Origin: Calothrix sp. NIES-2098
GTDB lineage: Bacteria; Cyanobacteriota; Cyanobacteriia; Cyanobacteriales; Nostocaceae
Length of the DNA stretch: 64,000 bases
Assembly: GCA_002368175.1 (NCBI GenBank)
Contig: AP018172.1
Coordinates: forward strand, 29,599 to 93,598
Direction: 5' to 3'
The notes under the pieces were generated by a model that made no database searches, was not told the origin of the DNA, and saw only the letters and a program-made list of their open reading frames with translations. The position numbers were made by a program, and so were the translations under genes. Positions 5,449 to 22,160 of this stretch are shown piece by piece (the first letter of the stretch is position 1; the number at the start of each line of letters is the position of its first letter).

Positions 5449-6597
5449 GTGAGTCAAGCTATGACAATCGGCTTTTCTCTCCAGCAGGCAGAACATGACC
5501 TGAATGATTTGAGTGCATTCAATATCCAAAGTTTTTGCCAACTACAATCTGAACAGTTAACTAGTCAGTCTCCAATTTTATTTGCACGTATTGTTTATCA
5601 TGATTGCATTTTAAAAGCTCATCAAGAAGTAATTAGTTATGCTCAAAAACAACCTCTTTTTTCACAAAAACAATTAGCTTATCTGCGTTCAGAACAGTGG
5701 TTTAGTGACTATCCTCTGGCATTCGAGTTAAAAGAATTTAAATTAAATAATTTTTCAGAAATTGCTTACATCTGCCCTATAGGCTATCGCAATCAAAAAC
5801 CTGAGTATATTCAAATAATTGCTGAACGCGCACTTTCTCAGGAATTACAACAATACATCCAGCAATCGGCAATGCTACTTGGTAAGTATGCAAGTATGTA
5901 TTTGGTATATGGCAAACAAAAAATTGAAATTCAATTACTCGAAGAAGTTTTGCATAAAGTCGGGCATCAATTACGTAATTCTTTAGCAACGATCGGGCTT
6001 TATGCTCATAATTTATACTTGGGGTTAACAGGTAATCAGTGCCAAGAGCAAGCAACAGTTATTCGTGAAAGTATCGAAGATTTGGATACTAATTTGAACG
6101 AGTTACTAGATTGTGGACAAGGAGTGAAATTAAGAAAATCTTCTCAAGACCTAAGAACTTTAGTATTGGAAAGTATTAAAGGATTACAACCGCTAATTAA
6201 TCAAAAGCAACTTACAATCTCTATACCCGATACATCTACAAATTTAATAATAGACCGTTTACAAATGAAGCAAGTCTTCGATAATTTGCTGAGTAATGCA
6301 GTTTACTTTAGTCCTAATTCCACAACTATTACTTGTAATTGGCAGATTTTTCAAGATGAAGTGCTAATTAAAATTATTGACCAAGGAAAAGGATTATCTC
6401 CAGAAGATATTCAAAAAATATTTACCCCGTTTTATTCTCGTCGTCCCGGAGGAACGGGACTGGGTTTAACTATTGCCAAAAAAATTGTTTTAGACCATCG
6501 CGGAAACTTATGGGCACAAAGTGTATCACATGGTGGAGCGCAATTTTGTGTAATATTGCCTCGACCGAAAATGTCTAGGAGTGTCAAAGATGGTTAA
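5449..6597 (+). CDS. sensor histidine kinase (HisKA + HATPase_c); start may be the ATG at 5461
   Basis: H-box (VGHQLRNSLATIG), N-box (LLSNAVYF) and G-boxes (DQGKGL, GGTGLGLTIAKKIV). Overlaps the downstream response-regulator gene. Confidence 0.85.
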   Translation: MSQAMTIGFSLQQAEHDLNDLSAFNIQSFCQLQSEQLTSQSPILFARIVYHDCILKAHQEVISYAQKQPLFSQKQLAYLRSEQWFSDYPLAFELKEFKLNNFSEIAYICPIGYRNQKPEYIQIIAERALSQELQQYIQQSAMLLGKYASMYLVYGKQKIEIQLLEEVLHKVGHQLRNSLATIGLYAHNLYLGLTGNQCQEQATVIRESIEDLDTNLNELLDCGQGVKLRKSSQDLRTLVLESIKGLQPLINQKQLTISIPDTSTNLIIDRLQMKQVFDNLLSNAVYFSPNSTTITCNWQIFQDEVLIKIIDQGKGLSPEDIQKIFTPFYSRRPGGTGLGLTIAKKIVLDHRGNLWAQSVSHGGAQFCVILPRPKMSRSVKDG

Positions 6598-7267
6598 TAG
6601 TCAAAAACTTTCAGTTTTGCTTGTAGACGATGAAGAACGTTTTCGCCAAGGCATACGTACCCTGCTCAATTTTTATAATATTAATGCTGCATTACCTATA
6701 GAAGTTGTCGGTGAAGCAGACTCTGTAGAACAAGTTTTAAAACTGACACAGCAGAAGTCTCCAGATTTAATTTTACTGGATTTACAATTAAGCGGTAGTG
6801 ATGGTATTACAGCTTTAGTTCGTTTAAAAGAAATTGCTTATACTGGCAAAGTTTTAGTTTTATCAGCCCACCAAGAAGATGATTGGATTTTCCGGGCTAT
6901 GCAAGCAGGCGCAGCAGGTTATGTATTTAAAAATCGCTTGGCTACTCAATTGGGCGAAGCTATTAAAACTGTGATGCAATCAGAAATTTATTTACCTTCA
7001 GAAGTTGCTAGCCGATTTTTTAGATTCTTTCAAGCTTACTCCGATTCCTCATTAAGAGCTTGCCATCAGTTACACTTAACAGAAAGAGAACAAGAAGTTT
7101 TATACTGGTTAGCTCAAGGTGCTTCCAATGAAGAAATTGCCAAGCATTTATATGTAACCGTTGCCACTGTAAAAGCTCATCTCACTAGCATTTTTGAGAA
7201 GTTAAAAGTTACCAGCCGAACTCAAGCTATTGTAGCCGCCCTCAAGTTAGGACTTGTAAAAGCTTAA
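6590..7267 (+). CDS. response regulator, NarL/FixJ family (REC + LuxR-type HTH)
   Basis: LLVDDE phospho-acceptor region, LILLDLQLSG, and a C-terminal LuxR HTH (EREQEVLYWLAQGASNEEIAKHLYVTVATVKAHL). The ATG at 6590 overlaps the HK stop (ATGGTTAA), consistent with an operon. Confidence 0.85.
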   Translation: MVNSQKLSVLLVDDEERFRQGIRTLLNFYNINAALPIEVVGEADSVEQVLKLTQQKSPDLILLDLQLSGSDGITALVRLKEIAYTGKVLVLSAHQEDDWIFRAMQAGAAGYVFKNRLATQLGEAIKTVMQSEIYLPSEVASRFFRFFQAYSDSSLRACHQLHLTEREQEVLYWLAQGASNEEIAKHLYVTVATVKAHLTSIFEKLKVTSRTQAIVAALKLGLVKA

Positions 7268-7295
7268 GAAGCAGAGTCAAGAGTCAAAAGTCAAT

Positions 7296-7384
7296 TAATT
7301 ATTTCTCCCTTGTCTCCCTTGTCCCATTTCTCCCCACACTCCCCACACTCCCCACTCTCCCTGCTGCCCCTCCGCCTCCCCTTT
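7296..7384 (+). repeat. ~85-nt polypyrimidine (C/T) tract immediately upstream of the pseudokinase gene
   Basis: The sequence tttctcccttgtctcccttgtcccatttctccccacactccccacactccccactctccctgctgcccctccgcctcccc is almost purely C/T. The ORF caller translates it as low-complexity SPHSPHSPLSLLPL, which is unlikely to be coding. Confidence 0.5.
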
Positions 7385-9511
7385 ATGCCTTCATCTGAAT
7401 ATTTTTATCAAGAATACCCTTGCTCTTACAATGCGCCTTTGAATTGCGATCGCCCTTTCCAAACGGCTCAAGAAATCAAAGGTGCTAGGTTTTGTTTGGA
7501 ATGTGGTTTTCCGGCTACTTTACCGCAGGAAGCTGAGATTAAAGGCAATTTGGGTATTTATCAGGTGCATAATTATTTAGGAGCGCGGGGTAATGGTAGG
7601 TTATACGCAGGTATTCACCTGAAGGATCGACAACCTGTAATTATTAAAGAATACTTGCTACCTAGTCGTTGTTTTAATGAAAAAGAGACTCAAGACCGTA
7701 AAGAAACTTTTAAGCGGGTGGGAGGGGTAAGTTTAGCTGATAGTAGAACCCCTAATTTTCGGCTTGTGAATACTTGGGAAGCGATCGCAGATGAAAAAGG
7801 AGAACGCTGTTATTTAATTACTCAAGGTACAGAAACAGCCCAAACCTTAAGACAATATCTTACCCAATATGGGTCAATGAAAGCGCCTCAAGTGCGCGAA
7901 GTATTAAATCAGGCTCTCCAAACTCTAGAATTTTTGCATAGCCAAAAGCTGCGGTTTCCTTCAAATCAAGTACAGCAAGGGCTAGCCCACGGAAACTTGA
8001 GTTTAGATAGCATCTTAATTCAAGTTGAAAATAATCAACAATATATATATTTTGACGATTTAGCTATCTGGGAAAATGTATTTATTCCTCCTAGTATTTC
8101 CCAACCTGCACCTTGCAAACGCGAGTACGATCTAGAAGCACTAGGATTAGTGGCTTTTTATTTATGGGTAGGCAGAACTACCGATTATTCTCATCAGCCT
8201 CTAGACCCCAGAGAAAACGAACATTGGCCTACTAGCGATCCCGATTTAAAAAAATTTATTTCCCGCCTACTACGATTAGAAAATCCGTTTGCAACTGCTG
8301 AATCTGCCCGCGAAAGTCTACTGCAACTACCTCAAGAGTATCAAGCGAGTAGTTTAAGACAATTACCTGAATCTGAAGAAAAAGAAAAGAGTATACGCAC
8401 CAAATTAATTGGGCTAGGAATTTTAGCATTCCTTATCCTAGGAGGTGGGATTTGGTATTATCTTTGGCAACGTCATCAACCAGAAGATAATAGTAAATAT
8501 ATCCCTTGGTTTGGACTAGTACGTAACTTTTCGGAAGTTAACAACGTGCCTTCAGGCAAATTCACCTATACAGGCGAACGAGATGGAACCTGGAGTTTCA
8601 TTTTGAAACAACAAGTTGACAATAATAGTTTAGAAGATTACTTAATCAATCCCAAACCAGAAGTAAAAGCAGAATTTAACTACGAACCAGTTACTTCGAT
8701 AGATTTAGATAATCTTAATCAACCTCTAGAAGAACTAGCAAGTGGTAAGAAAGACTTTGCAATTACTAGTTTAGTAGATAAAATAACAGATAAATTAGAG
8801 CAAAAACCAGCGATCAATGATGGATTACTTGTATATGTAGCATTTAATAAAAAAGATTCCAATTTAGCGAATGCTCTAAGAGGACAAATTACCCTTGAGC
8901 AATTGCGCCAAATTTATACAGGTAAAATTACCAATTGGCAGCAAATTAATTCTCAACTTCCTAATTTAGAAGTCAAACCCTTTGCTCCTACCGAACCGGA
9001 AGCTATACAAAAATTTCAAGAAATAGTGTTAAAAAATGACCCACAAGATAAAGCTTTATTTGCAGCCAATGTAGAAAAATTGGATACAACAAAAACCCAA
9101 AATCAGATACGCAGAGAAATTCTCGAAGGGCGAAATACAGGCATCATTGGTTTTGGGATTATTGCTAAAACTTGGGCGCAGTGTACGGGCTATCCCTTAG
9201 CGATCGTTGATGGTAACAAGCCACCTAGTCAACCGCTATTTCAACGTCGCGAACGTCGCCCTATCAATACCGCAGATGACCTGTGCCAACACGATAACTA
9301 TTTTTTTGATGTTAATGCTTTTCAAAGCTATCCTTTAAGATACCCTATATTTGTGGTGTACCCTAAAGACAAAAGTCGCCAAGCCGGGTCTACATTTGCT
9401 GAGATACTAACTACTCGTCAGGGCCAGTGTTTACTTAGTAAAGTAGGTCTTATCCCTTTACAACCTATACCTGATGAAATAAGGACTTATGCCTGCAAAT
9501 CGGTGCCCTAA
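7385..9511 (+). CDS. membrane-anchored pseudokinase: N-terminal Zn-ribbon-like Cys motif, degenerate protein-kinase-like domain, one TM helix and a ~330-aa extracytoplasmic domain
   Basis: Cys pattern (CSYNAPLNC...CLECGF). Kinase-like segments are present but the catalytic HRD is replaced (HGNLSLDSILI) and DFG is replaced (DDLAIWE), so it is predicted inactive. TM helix LIGLGILAFLILGGGIWYYLW. The likely true start is the ATG at 7385, after the C/T tract. Confidence 0.6.
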   Translation: MPSSEYFYQEYPCSYNAPLNCDRPFQTAQEIKGARFCLECGFPATLPQEAEIKGNLGIYQVHNYLGARGNGRLYAGIHLKDRQPVIIKEYLLPSRCFNEKETQDRKETFKRVGGVSLADSRTPNFRLVNTWEAIADEKGERCYLITQGTETAQTLRQYLTQYGSMKAPQVREVLNQALQTLEFLHSQKLRFPSNQVQQGLAHGNLSLDSILIQVENNQQYIYFDDLAIWENVFIPPSISQPAPCKREYDLEALGLVAFYLWVGRTTDYSHQPLDPRENEHWPTSDPDLKKFISRLLRLENPFATAESARESLLQLPQEYQASSLRQLPESEEKEKSIRTKLIGLGILAFLILGGGIWYYLWQRHQPEDNSKYIPWFGLVRNFSEVNNVPSGKFTYTGERDGTWSFILKQQVDNNSLEDYLINPKPEVKAEFNYEPVTSIDLDNLNQPLEELASGKKDFAITSLVDKITDKLEQKPAINDGLLVYVAFNKKDSNLANALRGQITLEQLRQIYTGKITNWQQINSQLPNLEVKPFAPTEPEAIQKFQEIVLKNDPQDKALFAANVEKLDTTKTQNQIRREILEGRNTGIIGFGIIAKTWAQCTGYPLAIVDGNKPPSQPLFQRRERRPINTADDLCQHDNYFFDVNAFQSYPLRYPIFVVYPKDKSRQAGSTFAEILTTRQGQCLLSKVGLIPLQPIPDEIRTYACKSVP

Positions 9512-10160
9512 TCCTAATTGCGAATATTTTAACCGCGCTTTACCCAACAATGCGAAGGTTTGCCCTTGGTGCTCAACTCCCTTGGGTAATGTAATTACAC
9601 CTACACCAACTCCTACTAGATCCGTTCCACCCCAACCAACGCCTCCACAACAAACTCCACCGCAAGCAACTCCATCACCATCTGTTCCACCCCAACCGAC
9701 TCCACCTAAACGACCAGTAGCAAATCCACCTGGCTATCCACCCCCCGGTGATTATTCCACAGAGTATCAGCAACGAGTTCCCCCCTACGTTCCACCCGTA
9801 CAGCCTGCGTATACTCCGCCACCGCCAAGATTACCACTGCTGAAGCTAATTCACTCTACAGGTAGAGAATTCCAGTGGTCGGGGGAAGCAGGTTACATTG
9901 GTCGGCGCAGTCAAAGTATGACAGTTCCGCCAGAAATTGACTTAACTGGTATTCCCCATGAGGGAATAATTTCTCGTCGCCATGCAAGGATTTATTGGGA
10001 CTGGTCGCAAAATGCGTACACAATCGTTGATATGAGTACAAATGGTATTTATTTAAATAACACTCTGTTAAATCCTGGCGTGCAATATCGTTTACTTAAT
10101 GGCGATTCATTGCAGTTCGGTCAAGATAATCTCGTGCGATTTACAGCGTATGTTATGTAG
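9489..10160 (+). CDS. FHA-domain protein with N-terminal zinc ribbon and Pro-rich linker
   Basis: CPNPNC...CPWC zinc ribbon; PQPTPP repeats; C-terminal FHA signature (GRRSQSMTVPPEIDLTG...ISRRHARIYWD...STNGIYLNNTLL). Overlaps the upstream pseudokinase gene by 23 nt. Confidence 0.8.
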   Translation: MPANRCPNPNCEYFNRALPNNAKVCPWCSTPLGNVITPTPTPTRSVPPQPTPPQQTPPQATPSPSVPPQPTPPKRPVANPPGYPPPGDYSTEYQQRVPPYVPPVQPAYTPPPPRLPLLKLIHSTGREFQWSGEAGYIGRRSQSMTVPPEIDLTGIPHEGIISRRHARIYWDWSQNAYTIVDMSTNGIYLNNTLLNPGVQYRLLNGDSLQFGQDNLVRFTAYVM

Positions 10161-10284: not shown

Positions 10285-13200
10285 TTATCGCTCTACTTTC
10301 TGGCGTAACTTCTCCATCAGCTGTTGTTTGCGGTCTATTCCTTTCATCCTCATATCAACCATCTGTTGAATAATTTCTTCTTGTTGTAAACGATTCAAAC
10401 CAATTTCTGGATCGGGAGAAACACGATAGCGCTGAGTAATTTTAGCAGCAATTTCTGCATCATCTGCATTAATTAACCACCGGGATGCTTCAGGAATAAC
10501 TTCATTACCATAGTCTGCTGCTACCTTTTGAATTAACTTTTGCTGCATCAAATGTGCTTGATATTCTGCATAGAAAATTTGATTGGATATGATAGATGCT
10601 TCGGTAATTCTTTGAAAATGGTGAGTTAATTCATGTACTACTGTTCCAGCAACACCGTTAACTGAAGTATCGCCAGCGATAAACACTGTACGCGTGCTGG
10701 GTTCGTAAAAACCACCTGCTTTTAAGTTAGGATTGTTAATATATTTTCCAACTAATGTTGTAGCTTGAGCTTCATTTTTTATAGCTTGCCTAATAGCTTC
10801 CTCGGTCATTGGTAGAATCTTACCTTGTTGTGTTAGTTCCAAAAAGGTAGCGGTGTAAGCTTCATTTGTATAGCGTGCTAATACTAAGCCTACCTTTGCG
10901 CGATCGACATCTCTAAAAGCAGCGCCAACTGCTTCAATTTGTTCGGCAATATTCAAGCCTTGTTTCAAATTTCGCTTGGCGATATCAATTAATTTCTGTG
11001 CTTGTTCTTGAGGTAAAACTTTAGTTGCTGCTTTGGAAAAGGCTTCTAATGTTGTTGCGGCTTGGCGTAATTGTTTAAAATAACTGGCAAGCATTAAGGC
11101 GTTGGCTGCAAAATCCGCGATCGCAATTATCAACCAGATTAACTGGGGATCTTCGGCTGACATTTTGGCGATCGCCGGATCGAGACCTACATCACTAGCA
11201 GCCGATTGTTTGCTATAAGTTGAGGCCTTCTCCACCACATCAATCGCACTAACAACCGTACCGACTGCGATTGCAATTCCGGGATTGAGAGTTACTATAC
11301 TGGCAATAATACCTGCTGTAATCGCAAAAGCTTTGAGTCCATCTTCTAAGCTTTTCTCATCAGCTTTAATTTGCTGTTCTTTTTGAATCCGAGTGTTAAT
11401 TACCGACGATAACGTAGGGTTTTGATCTATGCCTAAATCTTGTTTCGTCATCCCCACAATATCGTTTAACTGCCAAATCCTCAGTTTATCTTGGCTAATA
11501 TTGTCTTCTGTAGTGCGGATATTTTCGAGAATTTCATCAATTTTGCCACCAACAATCGATGTTAACTCTGCATCTGAAGCAGTTGCTAATTTTTCTACAT
11601 CGATATCTTCTCGTAGCAAAATCTGATATTTCAGTGCATAATTAGATTTTTGTGCCTTTAGTTCATTTTGCTTTTGTTCAATTCGTTGCTGAATTTCTGA
11701 TTCATGGGCTAAATCATAAGCTGATGAACTCGCCTGTTCTGGTTCTGGGACACCACCTGGGGGTAAATCTTTGTGTGCTTCCCGCAGTTGTAGCTGTAAA
11801 TTTTCAATCTCTTTAGTACGCGCAGTTAAATCCTTAGCAGCATTCCGCAGTCCTTCGCGTTTCTGAGGGCCATTATCACCTGCTTCCGTACAAATATCTT
11901 TATATTTATCTGCTTCTTTTTGCGCAAGTTCTCGGTTTTGTCGTAATTGCACCAAGGCTATTTGCTTACCTCGGTTGACAAACATATTCGGGAAATCTTC
12001 TGTCACTAACTTGACTAACTGGCTTTCTTCTACATTTAAAGATTTCAGTACCGCCTCGACCATCTTTTTTTGGTTCTCGAAATCAGCAGTTAGTGCATTA
12101 ATTTCATTAGATAACAAATCTCTTTGAGCTTCTTTGGCTTCAACTTCTGGGGTGCGACCGCTATAGTCTTGGATATCACGCTTTAACTGTTCCAGTTGTT
12201 CGGTTTTTTGTTTCAGTTCTTCACCCTTTTTGTCCCGTTCCTGAATTAAGGTAAAGGCTGTAGCATCCTTCATTGCAGTGTTGAGAGTTGCCTTAGAACC
12301 TTCATCTAAAGGAGGTGTTTCCTTCAGAGTAGTTCTCGCATACATCAGCCTGCGCGCATCCTCCGGTGACAGTCCTGGGTTATTCGCTGTACCTGCATCA
12401 GGAGTTTGACGCTGAATTAACATCACCTGTCCTGAGAAATTCCCTAGTTGGGGACGAAGTACGGGAATTTGGCTAAAATTATGACCGGATGTTTTCGCCA
12501 TCACCACAGTTTCAGAAGATGGTTCTTCACTGCTACTAGTTTTCTCAGCTTTTTTGCTACATTCCGCAGATAAATCAATTTCTGTGGGAGGAGTTTGTTT
12601 GCGACCATGATCTGTGGTGGTGTCATACTGGTCGTGTACTGCTTGGACTTTAGCTCTCAGTGCGTCACTTTCGCTAGTTACATCACTTGTAGCTTTCCCA
12701 ATAAAGCGCTGATGAGCAGAGGGGAATTCTTTGTTATCAATAGCAACGTGACCATCTTCATGATTTTTCAGCGCGCTATAGAAGTTATCCCATGATTGTT
12801 GTACTGGTGGGCATTGTTTGTTGCGTTCTGCCCATCGTGGCATGGTCATCACCTGAGTGACGTTAAGATTTGCTTGGGTTATGGGATCGCCTTGAGTAGT
12901 CACTTTGAAGTTAAAATCCACAGAGCCAGCTTCATCAGGCAGATTATTGGCAACTTCGTCTAAATTTTTACCGTGATAGGTGTTGTGTTGCAGGGTGGGA
13001 GGATTTTGGATGGTAGTGCTTCCAGATGAGGGGTTTTTGGCTGCTGGTTGAGCATTGTTTAATTGTGGCGTATCGCTTTGTAGGGGAGGATTTTCATCTA
13101 GTTGACGTAACAAAAGGTTAGTTGTAGGACGTACATGGGGTTGGCAAGAAATACGCCCAATATCATGTTCAGCCAGATTTTGCGGAGAAGCTTCTGCTAA

Positions 13201-13383
13201 CAATAATTCTTCTGTAGAACTTGGTGCAGTTTGAATTTGCGGTGTATTAATTGGCGGTGTGAAATTGGGTGTTGATGCGGCTAGTGATGGTTGCGTAGCG
13301 TTTTGGGGTGTAGTTTTTTTGCGTTGTGTTTTTATGCGATCGCTTGTCATGTCACCCAATTCCCCATCAACTGCTACAACCAA
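10285..13383 (-). CDS. large CIS effector-like protein: N-terminal FSxIPV-type leader motifs, coiled coil, two predicted TM helices, C-terminal HExxH zincin-like motif
   Basis: 1032 aa. Two copies of the motif typical of DUF4157-family toxins (HDIGRISCQPHVRP and HNFSQIPVLRPQ). A long charged coiled-coil region. Hydrophobic helices (AFAITAGIIASIVTLNPGIAIAVGTVV, LIWLIIAIADFAANALMLASYF). HELTHH near the C-terminus. Transcribed divergently from the CIS structural operon, downstream of a DUF4157 gene. Confidence 0.55.
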   Translation of the reverse strand: MVVAVDGELGDMTSDRIKTQRKKTTPQNATQPSLAASTPNFTPPINTPQIQTAPSSTEELLLAEASPQNLAEHDIGRISCQPHVRPTTNLLLRQLDENPPLQSDTPQLNNAQPAAKNPSSGSTTIQNPPTLQHNTYHGKNLDEVANNLPDEAGSVDFNFKVTTQGDPITQANLNVTQVMTMPRWAERNKQCPPVQQSWDNFYSALKNHEDGHVAIDNKEFPSAHQRFIGKATSDVTSESDALRAKVQAVHDQYDTTTDHGRKQTPPTEIDLSAECSKKAEKTSSSEEPSSETVVMAKTSGHNFSQIPVLRPQLGNFSGQVMLIQRQTPDAGTANNPGLSPEDARRLMYARTTLKETPPLDEGSKATLNTAMKDATAFTLIQERDKKGEELKQKTEQLEQLKRDIQDYSGRTPEVEAKEAQRDLLSNEINALTADFENQKKMVEAVLKSLNVEESQLVKLVTEDFPNMFVNRGKQIALVQLRQNRELAQKEADKYKDICTEAGDNGPQKREGLRNAAKDLTARTKEIENLQLQLREAHKDLPPGGVPEPEQASSSAYDLAHESEIQQRIEQKQNELKAQKSNYALKYQILLREDIDVEKLATASDAELTSIVGGKIDEILENIRTTEDNISQDKLRIWQLNDIVGMTKQDLGIDQNPTLSSVINTRIQKEQQIKADEKSLEDGLKAFAITAGIIASIVTLNPGIAIAVGTVVSAIDVVEKASTYSKQSAASDVGLDPAIAKMSAEDPQLIWLIIAIADFAANALMLASYFKQLRQAATTLEAFSKAATKVLPQEQAQKLIDIAKRNLKQGLNIAEQIEAVGAAFRDVDRAKVGLVLARYTNEAYTATFLELTQQGKILPMTEEAIRQAIKNEAQATTLVGKYINNPNLKAGGFYEPSTRTVFIAGDTSVNGVAGTVVHELTHHFQRITEASIISNQIFYAEYQAHLMQQKLIQKVAADYGNEVIPEASRWLINADDAEIAAKITQRYRVSPDPEIGLNRLQQEEIIQQMVDMRMKGIDRKQQLMEKLRQKVER

Positions 13384-13559: not shown

Positions 13560-13866
13560 GGAGTACTTCAAAGTCGTGTTGAGGTACTTCAAAGTCGTGT
13601 TGAGGTAGTTCACAGTCATGTTGGAGTACTTTGCAATCGTGTTGAGGTAGTTCACAGTCGTGTTGAGGTACTTCCAAATCGTATTGAGGTACTTCAAAGT
13701 CGTGTTGAGGTACTTCAAAGTCGTGTTGGGGTACTTCACAATCGTGTTGAGGTAGTTCACAGTCATTTGGAGTACTTTGCAATCGTGTTGAGGTACTTCA
13801 AAGTCGTGTTGGGGTACTTCACAATCGTGCTGGAGTACTTCAAAGTCAAGTTGAGATACTTCACAG
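13560..13866. repeat. tandem array of ~14.5 copies of a 21-bp unit (consensus GTACTTCAAAGTCGTGTTGAG)
   Basis: Directly visible: head-to-tail units with point variants (gtagttcacagtcgtgttgag, gtactttgcaatcgtgttgag, ...). Lies between the DUF4157 gene and the 1032-aa gene. Confidence 0.9.
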
Positions 13867-13871
13867 TATAT

Positions 13872-13903: not shown

Positions 13904-14599
13904 TTAATGATTTTGCTGCACAACGTGAGTTAATTCGTGAGCAAGTAACTCTTTACCTGGGTTACTTTCGGGAGCATATTCACCCTGACGGAAAAATATA
14001 TCTTGTCCGGTAGTGAAGGCGCGGGCTTGAATAGATTGGTTCATTTGGTCGGAGCGAGTATTATTGTGAATTTTGACACCGCTAAAATCAACGCCAAATG
14101 CTTGCTCCATTGGTTGGCGAACATTATCTGCTAGTGGCTGTCCGCTTCCCCGTGCTTGTTGAATAGAAGATTCTAAATTCGCTGCGGCTTCTGTCCCACC
14201 TTCAGTAGATTTAGCCTGTATTTCCTCTTCTGGTAGTTCTTCTCGTTGCACAAGGGGAGTGATGGAATCTCCTAGAGATTTTTTTTGCAGTGTTTCTTCT
14301 TCTGGTAATGCTTCTCGCTGGATAGGCTGACTCATAGTTTGCATTACCTGCTGCGCAACTCTATCGGCTTCTTGTTCATAAACATCCCCAGGTTGACTAA
14401 CTGCGAGTTTGGTTTGCGGACGTAGCGAGATGCGGCTAATGTCATGACCGAGGGGTTGGTTTTGAGATTGTACCTCAGCCACAGTTTGAGGGGAAGCTTC
14501 AGATGATTGTAAACCAAAGCCACGTTTTGGCTTGAGTGTAGGTATGGAAACGGGCGTAGTGTCAGCCTTTTGGCGCTGGGCTAATATGCGTTCTTTCAT
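13904..14599 (-). CDS. DUF4157-domain protein (eCIS-associated zincin-like HExxH domain), stand-alone
   Basis: The C-terminal 80 aa match the DUF4157 pattern closely (AFGVDFSGVKIHNN...ARAFTTGQDIFFRQGEYAP...LLAHELTHVVQQ). The N-terminus has the HDISRISLRP leader motif. The protein ends 4 aa after the HExxH. Confidence 0.85.
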   Translation of the reverse strand: MKERILAQRQKADTTPVSIPTLKPKRGFGLQSSEASPQTVAEVQSQNQPLGHDISRISLRPQTKLAVSQPGDVYEQEADRVAQQVMQTMSQPIQREALPEEETLQKKSLGDSITPLVQREELPEEEIQAKSTEGGTEAAANLESSIQQARGSGQPLADNVRQPMEQAFGVDFSGVKIHNNTRSDQMNQSIQARAFTTGQDIFFRQGEYAPESNPGKELLAHELTHVVQQNH

Positions 14600-15015
14600 T
14601 TTTTTCTCCTAATGCCCAAGCAGCAAGTAAATTTTTTATCAGTAGAGATATCTAGAATAGTGCTTCTCTCTGCCAAAGTCTAAATTAGGCAAAACTCAAG
14701 TTCGACTTTTGGCTAGTGTTGATTCTGATGCACTACCTTTAGCCTTGATTTTAGGATGAATTTTTTATTTTTAGTTATGGACTCAGAAGGAAAGCAAACT
14801 TTTTTTACACCTATTGGAGAAGTTGGGGGTAGTGTTGGTTATTCAGGCGTGTCAATTACCTCTAACCCCAGCCAAGTAGCTAAAGCAGCCGATAAGTATC
14901 TTAAAGACTCATTGCTTTTGCACAAGCTTACCGAACGTGTATATGAAATTTTACTTGAAGACCTGCGTTGCCAAAAGGAAAGGTTCAATAACTATAGTCA
15001 TCAAAGGTGGTTGTA

Positions 15016-15534
15016 ATGGCTGAAGGTAATAACGGCAATATTTCTCACGAGTTAAAGTATGTCACTACAAATCATTTCTATGTAGAAATCGATAGTTCTA
15101 TCGCTGCATCTTTTACTGAATGCGCTGGATTAAGTATGCAAGTGAAAAAAAATGTTTTTTTTGAAGGAGGTGTCAACGACCAGCAAAGAATTTATTTAGG
15201 ACACGCAGAATTTGCCGATGTCACTCTTAAACGCGGTGTCACCGACCACCCCGGTTTTTGGAATTGGATTAATGCAATTTTTGATGAAAAATCCACTACT
15301 CGGCGTAATGTTAATATTTTGGTTTTTAACCAAGCTGGCGAAACGATGATGAGTTGGACATTGATTGGTGCTATTCCTATATCTTGGAAAACACCAACCT
15401 TACAAGCAGATGGTAACGCAGTTGCTATAGAAGAATTAACTTTAGCTTATGAAGGTTTGCAATTAGGTAAATCTAAAGGCGGCGGTAATCCACAAACACG
15501 CGAGAAAAAGTCAGGTTTTTTCTTGTCTAATTAA
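15016..15534 (+). CDS. contractile injection system tube protein (T4 gp19 / Cis1-like)
   Basis: Conserved tail-tube family pattern (HFYVEIDS...FTECAGLS...YLGHAEFADVTLKRGVTD..FWNWI...WTLIGAIPISWKTPTLQADGNAVAIEELTLAYEGL). ATG at 15016; the ORF track begins at an upstream GTG. Confidence 0.85.
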   Translation: MAEGNNGNISHELKYVTTNHFYVEIDSSIAASFTECAGLSMQVKKNVFFEGGVNDQQRIYLGHAEFADVTLKRGVTDHPGFWNWINAIFDEKSTTRRNVNILVFNQAGETMMSWTLIGAIPISWKTPTLQADGNAVAIEELTLAYEGLQLGKSKGGGNPQTREKKSGFFLSN

Positions 15535-15557
15535 TTTGCAATTCTCCAACTAAAATT

Positions 15558-18500
15558 ATGCAAATTATTCAACCATTAATAGTAACTAAATTTCAACCGC
15601 TTGGGTTTGGAGTGAGAAAGCCTCTAGGTTATTCTCATCGACTTTTGTCAAGAAAAGAGTCTAGTTCTCTGTACGGTCATCATACTATCAAACCTTTAGG
15701 CGATCGCGTACCATTAGTCACCTATTCTCAATTTTTACAATCTCACGATAATCAAGTATTTAGCGACCCATCAATAGATGCTAATTTTCCAGAAACTGAA
15801 AATATTAATACTGACCTGACCTTAATTCAATTTGATACAGTTGATTCAGTTTTCTCAGATAGTAATAATCTTGATTCTGAATATATAGAAGGCGATATTC
15901 CAAATATATTACCTACTGCAAACACCAGCGACACGAATAATATTACACTGGAATCAAATATTAAAGTTAAGTCAAAATCCAAAAGAACGGAGAAATTGTC
16001 CGACTCTGAAGCTAAATCAAAGGCTAAATCTAGAGCTAAAAAAACGACTAAATCATCTAAGCAGATAGATGATATTCCTATTGTTAATAATAATGATGGG
16101 TTAGTAACACTCAATCAAAATCAAGCTTTAGATGCTAATAAAGAAACTAAAATACAGTCAAATATAAATGATAAAATAACTGATGGCGGTACTTCTATTA
16201 ATACCTGGAAAGCTTCGCTTATTGTTAATAATGAATCTGGATTAAGCGAGAATTTTGCTAATGAGGAAACGCCAGCGATCGCTGATTCTGTATCTACTGT
16301 AGATCGTGCTGATTTACCAACTATATCTCCTGCTACTAATAGCAGTGAAATTAGGACGCGATCGCCACAAGAAACTGCGTCAAAAACTATTGCTAATGAC
16401 ACTGCAAAAAGTTCAGAGTCAGAATCTAATGTAACTAGTATTGTTGATACATTAACTCTTTTAAGTAACTTAAATCCTAGAGAACAGACTATATTAACTG
16501 AAGATTCACAAGTTGTTGATGTCTCAGATATTCCAATTAACCAAACTGCAAAACAACAGGAAATAGTTACTAATTCAAATATCCTTAACCAACAAGATCT
16601 ATTCTCTACACAACAGCAGGAACATTTACCAGCTACAATTAGGAATTCTCAAGAAATTACAAACAATCTTCCAGACTCTAGCAATTATTTGTTAGATACT
16701 ACTAAACCTAGAGTTGAAGATACAGCTAATTTATCCCGTAATTTAGTAAATCTTTCCGAAGCACCATCTCCTCTACCCAACACTGAAGATTTAACTACAG
16801 TTAATGCATTAGATGCAGAAAATATTCCAAATATAACCACACCGGAAATTGTTAGTAATATATCCGTTCAGCCAGCACCAATCTCACCTGTAATTGAAGA
16901 TAACCTAATAGTCACTCCAGAATTACAGTCTACAGAAGTAGTTAATTTTGCGAATGCGCCAGCAAATGTCACTCCTCTACAAACTGACAGCACTAGCAAT
17001 ATACAATTAGCATCAACCTCGCCTGTAATTGCACAGGCGATAGTCACCTCAGAATCACAGTCTCTTGAATCAGATAATTTGGGGAACGCGCCAGAAAATG
17101 TCACTTCTCTACAAACTGACAGCACTAGCAATATACCCGTTCAGCTAGTACCAACTCCACCTGTAATTGCAGATAGGGGGATAATCTTGGATGCGTCAGA
17201 AAGTATAACTCCCCAACAAACTGACAACGCCAGCGATGTACCCGTTGAATTAGCAGCAACTCCACCTTTCATTGCAGATAACCCCATAATCGCTTCAGAA
17301 TCGGTTAATTTGTCGGATATACGAGAAAATATGACTCACCGACAAACTGATAGCACCAGCAATGTACCCGTTCAGCTAACGCCAACCTCACCTGTAATTG
17401 CAGATAACCCGATGGTGAGTTCAAAATCCCAATCTGCTGAATCAGTTAATTTGCTGGATGTGCAAGAAAGTCTGGTTTTATCCCCAGATGATAGCCAAAA
17501 AAACACAGAAATTCCAACTGTTGTCACTCCACTTCAATTGCGCCAAAGTACTGAAGTGGATACAGTAGCAGTAGATGAGAGTGCGATGTCTGACGAAAAG
17601 CCACATAGTGTCTACGCATCTGCCACATCAAGTATTATTTTGGAAGCTGGTAATGACGAACAACCTGTAAAACCAGATTTACCATCTACGGTTACAAGCT
17701 TGACTTTCACAGAGAATCAGTCAGAAACCTTAGATAACTTACCCGCACCACAAGGTTTTGCAACCGGGGGACAAGTCACACACTCCTCAGTGGAAAATCC
17801 ACAGATAGCATCTTCGGATACAGTCCCTGCTATGCTCACACCTGGGGAATTTGTCGTTAATGCTAATGATGCTCAGAAAAATCTTCACATACTCCGGCAT
17901 ATCAATACTGGTGGTACAGCAGAGGATATGATCCTTCCCAGTTTAGAGCTACCAACTCCAGAGACTCCGACTAAAGTCGATTCTTTTGCTGACACTTCAT
18001 TACAGCGTCAAAAATCTGATAATAGCGAATCTGAGGAATCTAACTCCCTAACTCCTGCTTCTTTAAGCACAGAAATTAGTCAGCACAGGCTTTCTTCACA
18101 CAGTTCTTTACCGCTAAATACTGTTGAAAACAATACTACTGCAAGAACTGAACCCTCTCCTCATTACTCATTACCTACATTAATCTTCCGCAAAACTACT
18201 TCCAACACTAACGCACCCTATGAAACGCCTACCCAATGGTCAAGTGTGGAAGAATTACTCAATGGAAACAACGATCCATTTACATCTTTTAACTTTAATG
18301 AGGAAGAATCTAACTGGCAAAATTCAGAACATTCTCAAACTTCACAACCATCGCCGCAAGTTTTTACTAAACGCCTAACTTCGGCTCAAGGCTTTGCTAA
18401 CGGTGGAGAAGTCACAGCACCCGATATAGCTACAGATATACAGCCAATAACTGAAACCATACAAAGTCCTTCTGCTGCTAATCCCGAAGCCGATGAATCT

Positions 18501-18605
18501 AGAAATCTAGAAGCTTTAGCCTATGAAATATATAACAGATTGCGACAACGAATAGAAGTTGAGCGAGAGCGTCAAGGTATCTATTTAGGTCGTTTACCTT
18601 GGTAA
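15558..18605 (+). CDS. 1015-aa low-complexity Ser/Thr/Asn/Asp-rich repeat protein; candidate tape-measure-like or cargo protein occupying the position where a sheath gene is expected
   Basis: Basic N-terminal ~60 aa, a Lys-rich patch (KSKSKRTEKLSDSEAKSKAKSRAKK), four to five 42-44-aa tandem repeats (..NVT.LQTDSTSNIPVQL.PT.PVIADN..), two GFA(T/N)GG(Q/E)VT motifs, and a structured C-terminus (LEALAYEIYNRLRQRIEVERERQGIY). Not sheath-like. Confidence 0.5.
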   Translation: MQIIQPLIVTKFQPLGFGVRKPLGYSHRLLSRKESSSLYGHHTIKPLGDRVPLVTYSQFLQSHDNQVFSDPSIDANFPETENINTDLTLIQFDTVDSVFSDSNNLDSEYIEGDIPNILPTANTSDTNNITLESNIKVKSKSKRTEKLSDSEAKSKAKSRAKKTTKSSKQIDDIPIVNNNDGLVTLNQNQALDANKETKIQSNINDKITDGGTSINTWKASLIVNNESGLSENFANEETPAIADSVSTVDRADLPTISPATNSSEIRTRSPQETASKTIANDTAKSSESESNVTSIVDTLTLLSNLNPREQTILTEDSQVVDVSDIPINQTAKQQEIVTNSNILNQQDLFSTQQQEHLPATIRNSQEITNNLPDSSNYLLDTTKPRVEDTANLSRNLVNLSEAPSPLPNTEDLTTVNALDAENIPNITTPEIVSNISVQPAPISPVIEDNLIVTPELQSTEVVNFANAPANVTPLQTDSTSNIQLASTSPVIAQAIVTSESQSLESDNLGNAPENVTSLQTDSTSNIPVQLVPTPPVIADRGIILDASESITPQQTDNASDVPVELAATPPFIADNPIIASESVNLSDIRENMTHRQTDSTSNVPVQLTPTSPVIADNPMVSSKSQSAESVNLLDVQESLVLSPDDSQKNTEIPTVVTPLQLRQSTEVDTVAVDESAMSDEKPHSVYASATSSIILEAGNDEQPVKPDLPSTVTSLTFTENQSETLDNLPAPQGFATGGQVTHSSVENPQIASSDTVPAMLTPGEFVVNANDAQKNLHILRHINTGGTAEDMILPSLELPTPETPTKVDSFADTSLQRQKSDNSESEESNSLTPASLSTEISQHRLSSHSSLPLNTVENNTTARTEPSPHYSLPTLIFRKTTSNTNAPYETPTQWSSVEELLNGNNDPFTSFNFNEEESNWQNSEHSQTSQPSPQVFTKRLTSAQGFANGGEVTAPDIATDIQPITETIQSPSAANPEADESRNLEALAYEIYNRLRQRIEVERERQGIYLGRLPW
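16840..17470 (+). repeat. intragenic tandem repeats of ~126-132 bp (x4-5) inside the 1015-aa gene
   Basis: Repeated DNA blocks such as gcgccagcaaatgtcactcctctacaaactgacagcactagcaatata... and gcgccagaaaatgtcacttctctacaaactgacagcactagcaatata... Confidence 0.8.
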
Positions 18606-18757
18606 TTTTTTTATAAAAACGAACCACGAAGTTCGCAAAGTTCGCAAAGTATGAGAAATCAAAAATAATTTCTAAACAAACTTTATTCTTCTACTCTCTG
18701 CGCCTCTGCGTTTCTGCGTGAACTTTCAAATCTATTAATCCTCATAACAATACTTAA

Positions 18758-19306
18758 ATGGCTACTCAAACAATTATCATTCCCCAAAAAAGGAATCCGC
18801 AACTACAGAAAGCTAAACTCGTAGCTTATGAAGGTGAAGCACCAGATATTGAACTGATGTTTAACCCTACAGAAATTAGTTTTTCTCGGACTGTTAGCTG
18901 GGAAAAAGAGAAAGGTAATAGAGGAACCACATTATTACCTAAAGTAAATTTCTCTGGTCTAGAACCTTACAAATTCACTCTTAAACAATTACTCTTTGAT
19001 ACTTATGAAACTAAACAATCCGTAATGGATTATATAGACATCATCAAGCAAGGAGTAGAAACTATTGAGCGAAATCCAGATAAACGTCCCCCAGTGTATA
19101 GGTTTATTTGGGGAATAGAATATTTTCATTGTGTAATTACTAGTCTCACATACAATTTAAATATGTTTCTGACTGATGGTACGCCAGTTAGAGCAATAGT
19201 AGATATCTCTTTACAAGAGGTAGATAAAAAGAACCCACCAGGGGGGAGACAATCAGCTTCTAAAGGCGCAAATCGTCAGCCAAATCCTAAGCTAGGAAAA
19301 ACTTAA
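18758..19306 (+). CDS. CIS tube-fold baseplate/tube-initiator protein (Cis5/Cis7-like)
   Basis: 182 aa. FNPTEISFSRTVSWEKEK...FSGLEPYKFTLKQLLFDTYE resembles the second, tube-like protein that sits between tube and spike genes in eCIS loci. The call rests on synteny plus this motif only. Confidence 0.5.
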   Translation: MATQTIIIPQKRNPQLQKAKLVAYEGEAPDIELMFNPTEISFSRTVSWEKEKGNRGTTLLPKVNFSGLEPYKFTLKQLLFDTYETKQSVMDYIDIIKQGVETIERNPDKRPPVYRFIWGIEYFHCVITSLTYNLNMFLTDGTPVRAIVDISLQEVDKKNPPGGRQSASKGANRQPNPKLGKT

Positions 19307-19360
19307 TAATTAGTTTTCAAGGCATTTATTCTTGCTTTATTGCCTATTTTTATCGTACTT

Positions 19361-21100
19361 ATGCCCGACCAAAGTCTTTATTTAAGCCAACCTAAATTGG
19401 AATTAGGAGGAGAAGCCGCTTCTCCTGAGCTAATGAAGGATTTATTACAAATTAGTGTGGAAGAAAGTTTACATTTACCAGCGATGTTTACGCTGTTAGT
19501 ACACAATAGCTATATTCCCACCGTTGACCGTCCAGAATATCAGCCTCGGCGTCACGAACAGTTATTTGAAATTGGTAAAAACGTTAAGATAGGTTTTACT
19601 TCTAGTACAACTCAAGATGGGAATTTTCAAAAAAAGTTAGATGATTATCTCATTGAAGGCGAAATTACAGCGATGGAAGTTCACTTCAATGAAAAATCAG
19701 AAGCTCATATAATTATTCGCGGTTACGATCTCTCTCATCGCCTGCATAGAGGTCGTTATAATCGTTCGTTCTTAAATAAAACTGATAGCGATATTGTAGA
19801 GCAAATAGCGTCAGAAGTAGGAATAAAAACTGGTAAAATAGACCCCAGCGGTGAAGCTCATGAATATGTCTTTCAAGAAAACCAAACTAATATGGAATTC
19901 TTACGAGAACGGGCTGCTCGCATTGGTTTTGAATTATTTATTTACAACAGCAAGCTATATTTTCGCAAACCAGAAAGCCAGGAATCGATAAAACTAAAAT
20001 GGCTAGTCGATATTAGTAAATTTAGTACCCGTGTCACCAGTGCAGAACAGGTGAGTGCTGTTGAAGTGCGTGGCTGGGATTATACTCAAAAAAAAGCGAT
20101 CGCATCTACAGCTAAAGCAGAAAAGGTAATAACTGATACAGGCAATAAAAAAGGTAGCAGTACTAGTACTAATTTTTCTAACTTAAAGCCGCCGAAAATG
20201 ACCGTTGTCGATCGACCAGTTGCTAGCACTACACAAGCACAGAAAATGGCGCAGGCTTTGTGTGATGAACTGGGAGGAGAATTTGTCTATGCAGATGCGA
20301 AAGCTGTAGGTAATCCCAAAGTTAGGCCAGGAAAAATAATTGAACTGGAAGGATTAGGCGATCGCTATAGTGGAAAGTATTATGTCACCGAAACTCGCCA
20401 TTTCTACGCTCAACGAATTTATACCACAGAGTTCAGCATTCGGGGGTTACGGGCTGGTAACTTATTCACCACTCTCTCGACTCAAACCCGTCTTCAGCCT
20501 GGTCAAACCTTCTTAGTAGGAATTGTCACCGATAACAAAGACCCTCAAGGATGGGGGCGAGTAAAAGTGAAATTTCCCACCCTCACTGAAGAACACGCTA
20601 GCAACTGGGCGCGAGTTGTGGCTTCGGGCGCAGCAAATCAACGTGGCTTTGATTGTTTACCAGAAGTTAACGATGAGGTTTTAGTTGGGTTTGAACATGG
20701 TGATATCCATCGCCCTTATGTAATAGGTGGTGTTTGGAATGGCAAAGACGCGCCACCAGAAGCGGTAGATGATACAGTTGTGGGGGGAAAAGTCCGATTA
20801 CGCACTGTCAAAACTCGTACAGGACACACCTTGCAGTTTATCGAAGAAGATAAAGGTAGCAGTAAAGCCGGGGTGCGCGTGCAAACGCAAGGCGGTCACA
20901 AAATTTATCTTAATGATAGCGATCGCTGTATTGAAATTGAAACCAACGGCGGTCATAAAATTAAAATGGATGATACAGGTAAATCAAAAATTTCCGTAGA
21001 ATCCACAGGTGATTTATCTTTAGAAGCTCCTAGAGGCAGCATTGATATTAAAGCCGGTCTGGATGTGACAGTCCAAGGTAAGTTTATTCGATTGAATTAG
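19361..21100 (+). CDS. spike/baseplate hub protein, VgrG-like (gpD + gp5/V OB-fold), Cis8-like
   Basis: C-terminal gpV/gp5-type domain (DNKDPQGWGRVKVKFP...NWARVV..GFDCLPEVNDEVLVGFEHGDIHRPYVIGGVWNG). Size and position fit a spike gene. The ATG at 19361 is preferred over the upstream TTG. Confidence 0.7.
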   Translation: MPDQSLYLSQPKLELGGEAASPELMKDLLQISVEESLHLPAMFTLLVHNSYIPTVDRPEYQPRRHEQLFEIGKNVKIGFTSSTTQDGNFQKKLDDYLIEGEITAMEVHFNEKSEAHIIIRGYDLSHRLHRGRYNRSFLNKTDSDIVEQIASEVGIKTGKIDPSGEAHEYVFQENQTNMEFLRERAARIGFELFIYNSKLYFRKPESQESIKLKWLVDISKFSTRVTSAEQVSAVEVRGWDYTQKKAIASTAKAEKVITDTGNKKGSSTSTNFSNLKPPKMTVVDRPVASTTQAQKMAQALCDELGGEFVYADAKAVGNPKVRPGKIIELEGLGDRYSGKYYVTETRHFYAQRIYTTEFSIRGLRAGNLFTTLSTQTRLQPGQTFLVGIVTDNKDPQGWGRVKVKFPTLTEEHASNWARVVASGAANQRGFDCLPEVNDEVLVGFEHGDIHRPYVIGGVWNGKDAPPEAVDDTVVGGKVRLRTVKTRTGHTLQFIEEDKGSSKAGVRVQTQGGHKIYLNDSDRCIEIETNGGHKIKMDDTGKSKISVESTGDLSLEAPRGSIDIKAGLDVTVQGKFIRLN

Positions 21101-21131
21101 GATTTTATTTCGCGCAAAGGCGCAAAGAAAA

Positions 21132-21644
21132 ATGACAGGAAGAGCAGCAGCAAGAATTACTGACTCAGTAGCGCACCCCTTACCCCCAGTGTTAACCCCA
21201 GGCCCCGGTAGTAACAATGTGTTAATTGGCAATTTACCAGCTTGGCGGGGTATACCTGCGGCGGCGGTGCCTGCTTTGCAGACTGCTAAACAAGCGGCTG
21301 ATACAGCTATCCAAGCGGCGGAGGCTGCTACTTTAGCGGCGGCGGGAACGCCAGGAGCACCAGCAGCCTATGCATCTGAACAAGCTCTCAAAACATCTCT
21401 GGGAGCTAGTATGAGTAGCATGATTTCTGCGGCTGCGGCTGCTGCTATCCCTGGTGCTGATATTCATCAATGTACTACGCCCTTACCCCTACCTCCCCAC
21501 GGGCCTGGGGTTGTGATTGACGGGAGTCAGACAGTAATGATTAACGGACTACCCGCTTGTCGTATGGGTGACACTGTTTTAGAAGCATTAGGCCCGCCGA
21601 ATAAAATTACCAAAGGTGAAATGACTGTTTTGATTGGTGGCTGA
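21132..21644 (+). CDS. PAAR-domain spike-tip protein (Cis10-like)
   Basis: Split PAAR motifs (ARITDSVAHPLPPVLTPGPGSNNVLIGNLPA ... HQCTTPLPLPPHGPGVVIDGSQTVMINGLPACRMGD) flanking an Ala-rich linker. Confidence 0.8.
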   Translation: MTGRAAARITDSVAHPLPPVLTPGPGSNNVLIGNLPAWRGIPAAAVPALQTAKQAADTAIQAAEAATLAAAGTPGAPAAYASEQALKTSLGASMSSMISAAAAAAIPGADIHQCTTPLPLPPHGPGVVIDGSQTVMINGLPACRMGDTVLEALGPPNKITKGEMTVLIGG

Positions 21645-21733
21645 CCGCTTCTCATCTCGACCTTTGGCGAATAGGCTTAAATCTGCTGTGCCGATATCTT
21701 TGAAAGTATAGATATCACAGCCATATAGTAACT

Positions 21734-22141: not shown

Positions 22142-22160
22142 TTCCTAATTTGGTGTAACT

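Follow-up and report, generated by a model that had tools for sequence, protein, structure and literature searches.

A stretch of 64,000 nucleotides from the cyanobacterium Calothrix sp. NIES-2098 (assembly GCA_002368175.1, contig AP018172.1, positions 29,599 to 93,598 of the forward strand; hereafter called the window) carries a pair of overlapping plus-strand genes that are predicted to encode, respectively, a membrane receptor whose kinase domain is catalytically dead and an FHA-type reader of phospho-threonine. The pair forms the second half of a four-gene cassette that begins with a histidine kinase (HK) and a GerE-type response regulator (RR), and both this cassette and the receptor family alone are physically embedded in contractile injection system (CIS) gene clusters across cyanobacteria. 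The reading favoured here, at a probability of about one half, is that the pair constitutes the post-translational half of a signalling cassette dedicated to the cyanobacterial CIS, in which it would serve as a non-catalytic receptor and adaptor. An earlier, sequence-only reading of this DNA gave the anatomy of the two genes largely correctly but overlooked the two-component pair upstream and the CIS context. Coordinates of all features are collected in Table 1.

All 80 Nostocales genome loci, and Nostoc NIES-3756 as well, show the order HK, GerE-type RR, pseudokinase and FHA gene, and among 88 related loci the HK gene lies upstream in 81 and the RR gene is conserved in 82. CIS genes occur within 8 kb of the cassette in 67 of the 80 Nostocales loci. 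In the canonical arrangement, the cassette is followed on the plus strand by a tube-like gp19 gene, a large open reading frame (ORF), CIS_tube, VgrG, PAAR, gp25 and Baseplate_J, while a divergent minus-strand array, located directly upstream of the HK gene, comprises in order a second FHA gene (FHA2), two small ORFs, two tube genes, a sheath gene and a Pvc16-type cap gene. In basal Nostocales (L079–L083), the effector insertion is absent and the tube gene follows the FHA gene after about 450 nt. The CIS operon of the window begins 4.8 kb after the FHA gene, with two effector-type genes in between, and a DNA ligase gene occupies the position upstream of the cassette where relatives have the divergent CIS operon. 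The genes inserted between cassette and CIS operon vary strongly in number and identity among related loci. The second FHA protein, which ends the divergent cap-sheath-tube operon in about 40 loci (L008–L083; e.g., L076:1-822 and L083:3-1196, minus strand), consists of an N-terminal FHA domain and a long acidic disordered tail; the CIS clusters of those loci therefore contain two FHA proteins.

The association with CIS genes extends to receptors that are only distantly related to that of the window. Two members with 31–35% identity that have no zinc ribbon, P0353 and P0343, are encoded between tube genes and the gp19/CIS_tube/VgrG genes on the same strand, and distant relatives with 27–42% identity to P0353 are found in 52 of 80 metagenomic loci, as well as in L086 and L089, between sheath or tube genes and gp19/CIS_tube/VgrG in the same orientation. 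The usual metagenomic order is sheath, tube, tube, small ORF, pseudokinase, gp19, large ORF, CIS_tube, VgrG and PAAR. Since these CIS-embedded metagenomic loci have neither FHA nor two-component genes, the receptor appears to be the core CIS-linked element, to which the FHA protein and the two-component system would have been added in Nostocales; the additions are also found in L084, L154 and L155. Supplementary tables of a published survey of extracellular contractile injection systems (eCIS) list PBP_like_2 genes of 732 and 814 codons within eCIS loci of Gloeothece and Limnospira (PMC8213781), and these are very probably members of the receptor family. In the same tables, FHA is an enriched regulatory “shell” domain (5.6-fold) and PBP_like_2 a non-significant “cloud” domain (PMC8213781).

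The product of the first gene is 100% identical to a protein of Calothrix sp. NIES-2098, and it belongs to a family of 502 cluster representatives (50% identity) at E ≤ 1e-3, or 211 at E ≤ 1e-30. Its start is ATG 7385, which is the start site in all orthologues. A longer reading from TTG 7310 was rejected because no homologue uses that codon; it would also place the C/T-rich tract that precedes the gene within the protein. The 23-nt overlap of the two genes (9489–9511), which the sequence-only reading had described, is confirmed by the sequence and the ORF list and is kept across orthologous loci, and the FHA protein is translationally coupled to the receptor. That reading was likewise right about the Cys-motif N-terminus, transmembrane (TM) helix and large extracytoplasmic domain of the first product, and about the Zn-ribbon, Pro-rich linker and FHA domain of the second. 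Databases name the receptor family either “phosphate ABC substrate-binding protein” (NCBI, JGI) or “serine/threonine kinase”, both of which are probably misleading. Membership of the pair in an anti-phage defence system was considered and set aside, the matches being weak N-lobe hits to the PD-T4-6 and mad6 kinase models.

The kinase-fold domain of the receptor scores 20.8 bits against Pfam Pkinase, for which the gathering cut-off is 31.7, and the match covers the N-lobe only. An AlphaFold2 (AF2) model of the receptor with a predicted local distance difference test (pLDDT) score of 90.5 nevertheless shows a complete bilobal kinase fold, for which the top Foldseek matches are WNK3, S. aureus PknB and M. 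tuberculosis PknI (E about 1e-10 over about 285 aligned columns), with M. tuberculosis PknB also matched. Catalytic residues were assessed by aligning the domain with the two Hanks kinases of the window and PknB, and by motif counts in 90 family representatives and 80 metagenomic members. The glycine-rich loop is partial (G-x-R-G-x-G-R) and the beta3 lysine is kept (V-I-I-K88-E), whereas the catalytic loop reads H202-G-N-L-S-L-D-S in place of HRDxKxxN, so that the catalytic-loop Lys and Asn are replaced along with the catalytic base. Of the 40 metagenomic motifs recovered, 36 read HGN, as does the whole of alignment A1; HGY and HAN are rare variants, and HRD was absent from all family motifs recovered in the sets counted. 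Compared with canonical kinases, the activation segment has lost about 18 residues, and the Glu of APE is absent, PPS standing in place of (A/S)PE.

The sequence-only reading had held that the domain lacks both HRD and DFG residues, citing HGN and DDL. The loss of HRD is confirmed by the alignment; the loss of DFG is not, as the “DDL” was taken one residue out of register. The motif at this position is D225-[LF]-[AGS]-L-W-E (D225-L-A in the window), a register assigned on conservation together with the range of residues (C/S/T/A) found at the position before it. It is D225 that is the conserved motif residue, and not Asp224, which is a variable position (C/S/T/A/D), and the DFG Asp is therefore kept, as is the VAIK Lys. 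K88 and D225 are each retained in at least 90% of family sequences, and the persistence of the beta3 Lys and DFG Asp means that the domain is not fully degenerate. On these grounds it is classed as a pseudokinase, having a kinase fold whose catalytic base is lost family-wide and whose inactivity is predicted, and of a type that may still hold nucleotide. Nucleotide-binding pseudokinases in which Asn has replaced the catalytic Asp include JAK JH2 (HGN) and HER3 (HRN). These likewise keep the beta3 Lys and the metal-binding Asp; they are, however, eukaryotic tyrosine-kinase-like domains with no evolutionary link to the domain of the window, for which nucleotide binding is predicted. The receptor architecture matched none of the bacterial pseudokinase families covered by a 2025 review (ActPs1-3, GLW, CP1, DYD and DLHK).

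Outside the kinase fold, the four cysteines of the N-terminal zinc ribbon (Cys13/21/37/40) are invariant in the close subfamily (alignment A2), and the ribbon is absent from the more distant CIS-embedded subfamily. As a predictor of an FHA neighbour the receptor ribbon fails, given that 38 members with a zinc ribbon have no FHA gene nearby. A disordered linker of low pLDDT (aa 322–344) runs ahead of the TM helix. The C-terminal 340 aa are modelled with confidence (domain pLDDT 93.7) as a type II periplasmic binding-protein fold of the PstS class; the top Foldseek match is Sll0540 (9l8j), and the top 40 are PstS proteins, with E values down to 1.7e-14. The anion-binding R-x3-S-G-T motif is replaced by A-x3-P-E-A (A-P-T-E-P-E-A opposite R-P-S-E-S-G-T of Sll0540), the score against TIGR02136, the PstS equivalog, is 31.7 against a cut-off of 206.6, and no pstCAB or other transporter genes were found near the cassette. 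By these measures, the outer domain has the fold of PstS without its phosphate-binding motif, score or neighbours. It contains an invariant pair of cysteines, Cys600 and Cys634, which suggests an oxidizing compartment, and the receptor as a whole is predicted to be bitopic, with a disulfide-bearing PstS-fold domain outside the cytoplasm and the kinase-fold domain inside.

The FHA protein retains the residues of a phospho-threonine pocket, IGRR, SRRH and TNG (G-R, S-x-x-H and N-G), at 90% or more in 120 homologues, and its zinc-ribbon cysteines are also highly conserved. The linker between the two domains is rich in Pro and Thr, variable, built on a 15-nt period according to Tandem Repeats Finder (TRF), and contains many Thr-Pro pairs. 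The match of the FHA protein to the TagH model TIGR03354 is weak (33.7 against a cut-off of 120). FraH (Alr1603) of Anabaena PCC 7120 was considered as a possible orthologue. As reported by Merino-Puerto et al. 2011, it combines a zinc ribbon and a Pro-rich linker with an FHA domain at the C terminus, and would on that account share the architecture of the window protein. Orthology was rejected because the termini differ: FraH starts MIVCPNCN and ends VTFLFKLA, as judged from cloning primers (PMC9035410), and the window protein starts MPANRCPNPNC and ends RFTAYVM. FraH is phosphorylated and has both a kinase and a phosphatase among its associated proteins (PMC9035410).

In the HK of the cassette, the H-box (H173) and the N and G boxes are invariant and there is no hydrophobic segment. 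Its N-terminal 160 aa (5449–5930) match no Pfam family and include many invariant residues (e.g., R47, Y50, Y64, W84, C109 and Y113), and this region may be an unrecognized input domain. A hydropathy scan found no TM segment in the HK, RR or FHA proteins, which leaves the pseudokinase as the only membrane-spanning member of the cassette. GerE regulators, some of them with a histidine kinase upstream, have been described as conserved regulators and a “shell” feature of eCIS (Geller et al., 2021; PMC8213781), and a GerE-type RR that adjoins CIS genes and has an HK directly upstream fits such an eCIS-associated two-component regulator by Pfam content and neighbourhood.

Under the favoured reading, the outer domain would sense an envelope, periplasmic or lumenal cue other than phosphate, and the pseudokinase, probably with nucleotide bound, would switch conformation and offer a docking platform without transferring phosphate. 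A Hanks kinase encoded elsewhere would phosphorylate a threonine of the receptor or of a CIS protein; this mark would be read by the FHA adaptor, which would thereby control CIS assembly, membrane docking or firing, and the RR would drive transcription of the divergent CIS operons. A more specific proposal, put forward tentatively, is that the receptor family is the trigger or tether of the cyanobacterial CIS, a nucleotide-gated, non-catalytic transmembrane receptor whose re-purposed PstS domain would sense an envelope or lumenal cue and link it to CIS assembly or firing, with one or two FHA adaptors as its readout and a dedicated two-component system as support in Nostocales. A Hanks kinase occurs within 8 kb in just 6 of the 80 orthologous loci, and it is a divergently transcribed one rather than either of the tandem kinases of the window. 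In L001 (1-1488, minus strand), and also in L066, L067, L069 and L072, such a kinase lies just upstream of the HK gene, in lineages without CIS neighbours; that of L001 is a CHASE2-Pkinase, and genes for a DUF928 protein and a caspase-like Peptidase_C14 protein lie downstream there. The divergent kinase is a candidate for the writer of the phospho-threonine mark.

Several points weigh against a dedicated role in CIS signalling. The function is drawn from gene neighbourhood and analogy, and nucleotide binding from just two conserved residues, K88 and D225. No conserved active kinase or phosphatase adjoins the cassette, the former being confined to the six loci mentioned and the latter not having been the object of a dedicated search, so that the phospho-threonine step is left without an assigned writer. 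In the 64 kb of the window there are no homologues of sheath, cap, inner tube or AAA ATPase, and with the sheath/tube half missing this strain may have a split or defective system. The Nostocales loci come from close relatives, and their common synteny therefore does not amount to 80 independent observations, while the metagenomic sample was picked by similarity to a CIS-embedded member. No CIS gene is present in the available sequence at 13 of the 80 Nostocales loci, in Nostoc NIES-3756 and at 28 of the 80 metagenomic loci; some of these have flanks of at least 10 kb (L123, L126, L128 and L149), and the family is thus not strictly tied to CIS. The published CIS cluster of Anabaena PCC 7120 (all3313-all3327) is also described without such a gene (PMC8894136).

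Three known systems resemble the pair. The PpkA/PppA/Fha1-TagH pathway of type VI secretion systems (T6SS) likewise combines a membrane receptor of kinase fold with an FHA protein within the gene cluster of a contractile injection machine. The outer domain of PpkA is of the von Willebrand type. The receptor of the window differs in that it lacks the catalytic Asp and has a PstS-like outer domain, and its machine belongs to the Afp/eCIS lineage (gp19 tube, CIS_tube and Pvc16 cap) rather than the T6SS; no phosphatase gene was seen, although no search was aimed at phosphatases. In the PpkA-TssL-Fha pathway of A. tumefaciens, the FHA protein reads phospho-threonine and licenses T6SS assembly (PMC3953482). 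M. tuberculosis MviN (MurJ), whose pseudokinase domain is phosphorylated in trans by PknB and recruits FhaA to regulate an envelope process (PMC12599244), is similarly a membrane protein with an intracellular pseudokinase domain and an FHA partner. The pseudokinase domain of MviN is, however, joined to a lipid II flippase and unable to bind ATP, whereas the receptor of the window keeps the Lys and Asp, is fused to a PstS-like domain and has a CIS context. EssB/YukC of type VIIb secretion systems (T7SSb), compared by description only in the case of EssB, shares a bitopic layout with an N-terminal cytoplasmic pseudokinase, one TM helix, an extracellular domain and pairing with FHA in a secretion cluster (PMC9600267). 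Yet the contact between YukC and FHA is independent of phosphorylation, and the FHA domains of EssC/YukB lack the phospho-threonine residues, whereas the FHA pocket of the window protein is intact; YukC has also lost all nucleotide-binding motifs, is about half the size, and belongs to another phylum and machine. The pair is a member of none of these three systems: its kinase is dead (unlike PpkA), its FHA pocket is intact (unlike T7SSb) and its machine is of the Afp/eCIS lineage. The pseudokinase is not described by Geller et al. (2021; PMC8213781), and FHA appears there in a supplementary table only.

The main rival to a signalling role is that the receptor is a purely structural CIS anchor or core subunit after the manner of EssB/YukC, with phosphorylation-independent FHA binding and no sensing. 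This would account for the distant clusters, where the receptor gene is closely packed among co-oriented structural genes and FHA, HK and RR genes are missing from the vicinity, and there are precedents both in YukC, a bitopic pseudokinase that binds FHA independently of phosphorylation and is the hub of a secretion machine (PMC9600267), and in the documented membrane anchoring of cyanobacterial CIS (PMC8894136). We consider it unlikely, given that the phospho-threonine residues lost from YukB/EssC are kept in the FHA protein here, and that conservation of Lys88 and Asp225 suggests a ligand-dependent switch over an inert fold, in contrast to YukC, which cannot bind ATP. Furthermore, the companions of the gene in Nostocales are a two-component system and not structural genes, and some family members are far from any CIS gene. 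The sequence-only reading had instead proposed a phospho-threonine-dependent scaffold in need of a separate active kinase, possibly the tandem kinases at 36.5-39.8 kb (36558-38177 and 38280-39848). The scaffold itself is reasonable, because the catalytic base is lost and the FHA phospho-threonine residues are kept, and MviN-FhaA-PknB (PMC12599244) and PpkA-TssL-Fha (PMC3953482) are precedents for reliance on a trans-acting kinase. The intact pocket calls for some active kinase, and the tandem genes do encode genuine Hanks kinases (Pfam 158.6 and 140.3 bits); nothing, however, ties them to the pair. They lie 26 kb away beyond unrelated genes, the kinases near orthologous loci are different ones, and the strong and phylogenetically wide linkage of the pair is to CIS genes, all of which makes a general scaffold served by these kinases and unrelated to CIS improbable. 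The two kinases are paralogous, being about 50% identical over the kinase domain, and their C-terminal halves contain no Pfam domain.

Two further explanations start from the individual domains of the receptor. The PstS fold, the phosphate-binding proteins that are its closest structures, the NCBI/JGI annotation and the members that do not adjoin CIS genes could all point to a phosphate or oxyanion nutrient sensor that feeds the two-component system, the proximity to CIS being inherited synteny. This seems quite improbable in view of the replaced anion-binding motif, the low equivalog score and the lack of pstCAB genes, and because the regulator is of the GerE rather than the PhoB/OmpR type; relatives of about 30% identity, moreover, are still located inside CIS operons, and inherited synteny by itself could hardly account for that. 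The kinase domain, for its part, might be an atypical active kinase, equivalent to PpkA, whose substrate is the Thr/Pro-rich linker of the FHA protein. The retained beta3 Lys, partial glycine-rich loop and DFG Asp would suit such an enzyme, as would the abundance of Thr-Pro in the linker and the identity of the top sequence hits of solved structure, namely WNK kinases, whose atypical active site does not prevent activity. Set against these are the Asn that replaces the catalytic Asp in essentially every member, the replacement of the catalytic-loop Lys and metal-binding Asn, the truncated activation segment without the APE Glu, and a Pfam score below threshold that extends over the N-lobe only, and we regard activity of this kind as very doubtful.

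The 89 nt ahead of the receptor gene (7296–7384) had been described as an almost pure C/T tract that would give a pyrimidine-rich 5' untranslated region (UTR) or a triplex-prone promoter element. The most pyrimidine-rich 85-nt stretch of the window does fall within it, and the tract lies directly upstream of the start codon. The tract is nonetheless 84% pyrimidine (46 C, 29 T, 9 A and 5 G) rather than pure, contains no pure pyrimidine run of 18 or more, and is built of tandem 9-mers. Spacers between the RR and pseudokinase genes at 80 orthologous loci have a median length of 43 nt and lack the tract, part of which is common only to the closest relatives (L004/L005); other lineages have different heptamer arrays at this site (GGTCATT, CAACAGT or TTGTCAG) or none. 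Similar tracts are ordinary elsewhere: 1.37 Mb of Nostocales loci contain, on either strand, 83 partly overlapping scan windows that are at least 85% pyrimidine or purine, several with CTCCCCACA. No promoter-like or terminator-like site was found in a plus-strand scan of the spacer, its RNA shows no structure (folding z = 0.56), and there is no Rfam match. The proposed regulatory roles were accordingly rejected, and we give a functional tract in this operon hardly any credence. The tract is a repeat expansion of the short tandemly repeated repetitive (STRR) sequence type, which is ordinary in cyanobacteria, and the spacer that holds it is most likely intra-operon. STRRs are likewise intergenic, tandem units of 7–9 nt, often C-rich on one strand, dispersed in Nostocales and not conserved at orthologous sites. 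The units of the window (AGAGTCA, TCTCCCTTG and CTCCCCACA) are variants rather than the three classical heptamers; GGTCATT (a rotation of TTGGTCA) and CAACAGT are the classical STRR2 and STRR3 units as reported by Mazel et al. 1990. A second block like that ahead of the receptor gene lies at 31950-32065, where GGTCATT (x3.9) is followed by a C/T-rich stretch (31979-32057) with TTTCCCCCTTG and CTTCCTCAT repeats, and AAGAGTC (x3.3) is found at 34905-34927.

Table 1. Features of the cassette and its surroundings in the window (positions are those of the 64,000-nt stretch)
Feature	Position	Strand	Description
Soluble histidine kinase	5449-6597	+	382 aa; HisKA + HATPase_c (Pfam); first cassette gene
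Response regulator	6581-7267	+	Response_reg 81.5 bits, GerE/LuxR-type 70.5 bits; overlaps HK gene by 17 nt
RR-pseudokinase spacer	7268-7384	+	Enlarged by short tandem repeats; includes the “polypyrimidine tract”
AGAGTCA x3	7273-7294		TRF
TCTCCCTTG x3.7	7304-7334		TRF; tandem 9-mer
CTCCCCACA x3.6	7330-7361		TRF; tandem 9-mer
Receptor pseudokinase gene (gene 1)	7385-9511	+	708 aa; zinc ribbon / kinase-like / TM / PstS-like domain; predicted bitopic membrane protein
N-terminal C4 zinc ribbon	7421-7504	+	Cys13, Cys21, Cys37, Cys40
Kinase-fold domain without catalytic base	7532-8329	+	Alignment, family motif counts, Foldseek
Single TM helix	8393-8467	+	aa 337-361 by hydropathy scan; AF2 helix 346-364
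Extracytoplasmic PstS-fold (PBP_like_2) domain, predicted	8537-9484	+	Pfam PF12849 30.8 bits, Foldseek
FHA adaptor gene (gene 2)	9489-10160	+	223 aa; zinc ribbon, Pro/Thr-rich linker, FHA domain
FHA-protein zinc ribbon	9504-9572	+	Cys6/11/25/28, highly conserved
FHA domain	9897-10121	+	aa 137-211; Pfam FHA 50.1 bits, threshold 20.7
DUF922 + DUF6782 metallopeptidase-like protein	10285-13383	-	1032 aa; Pfam; putative CIS-associated effector
eCIS_core (DUF4157) protein	13904-14599	-	PF13699 112 bits; homologues at same position in ~25 related loci
CIS spike/baseplate half	15007-25393	+	gp19-like tube, 1015-aa ORF, CIS_tube, VgrG-like spike, PAAR, gp25, Baseplate_J, Tail_P2_I (Pfam)
DUF4159 protein after CIS operon	25471-26676		

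Among the genes downstream of the cassette, DUF4157 is a known CIS effector domain (PMC8894136; PMC8213781), and the 1015-aa ORF of the CIS operon is without recognizable domains. An array of a 21-nt unit, GTACTTCACAGTCGTGTTGAG, with 14.6 copies and 78% matches, lies at 13563-13867 between the two minus-strand effector-type genes. The gene “orf392” was rejected as a recurrent linked gene, since its matches are to a repetitive ORF at 27774-28142 and are probably repeat-driven; this small minus-strand ORF is made up of 30- and 45-nt tandem repeats and is pentapeptide-repeat-like.

About 40% of sequenced cyanobacterial genomes have a CIS cluster, and the system of Anabaena has been tied to stress-induced ghost-cell formation (PMC8894136). 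The words kinase, FHA and regulation are absent from the paper that describes the thylakoid-anchored CIS (tCIS) of Anabaena (PMC8894136), large eCIS surveys name just GerE/BTAD-type transcription factors as regulators (PMC8213781), and a full-text literature search for contractile injection in cyanobacteria together with FHA, kinase or pseudokinase returned nothing relevant. The receptor adds to the few bacterial pseudokinases a widespread, uncharacterized family that combines the HGN/DLA signature with a TM helix and a PstS-like ectodomain. The membrane receptor and phospho-threonine readers encoded inside CIS clusters are testable candidates for the positioning or triggering of the machine. 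If the trigger-or-tether proposal is true, the receptor and its readout would represent a pseudokinase-based counterpart, in the eCIS/tCIS lineage, of the threonine-phosphorylation checkpoint of the T6SS, for a class of machines in which the CIS papers searched name no post-translational regulator.

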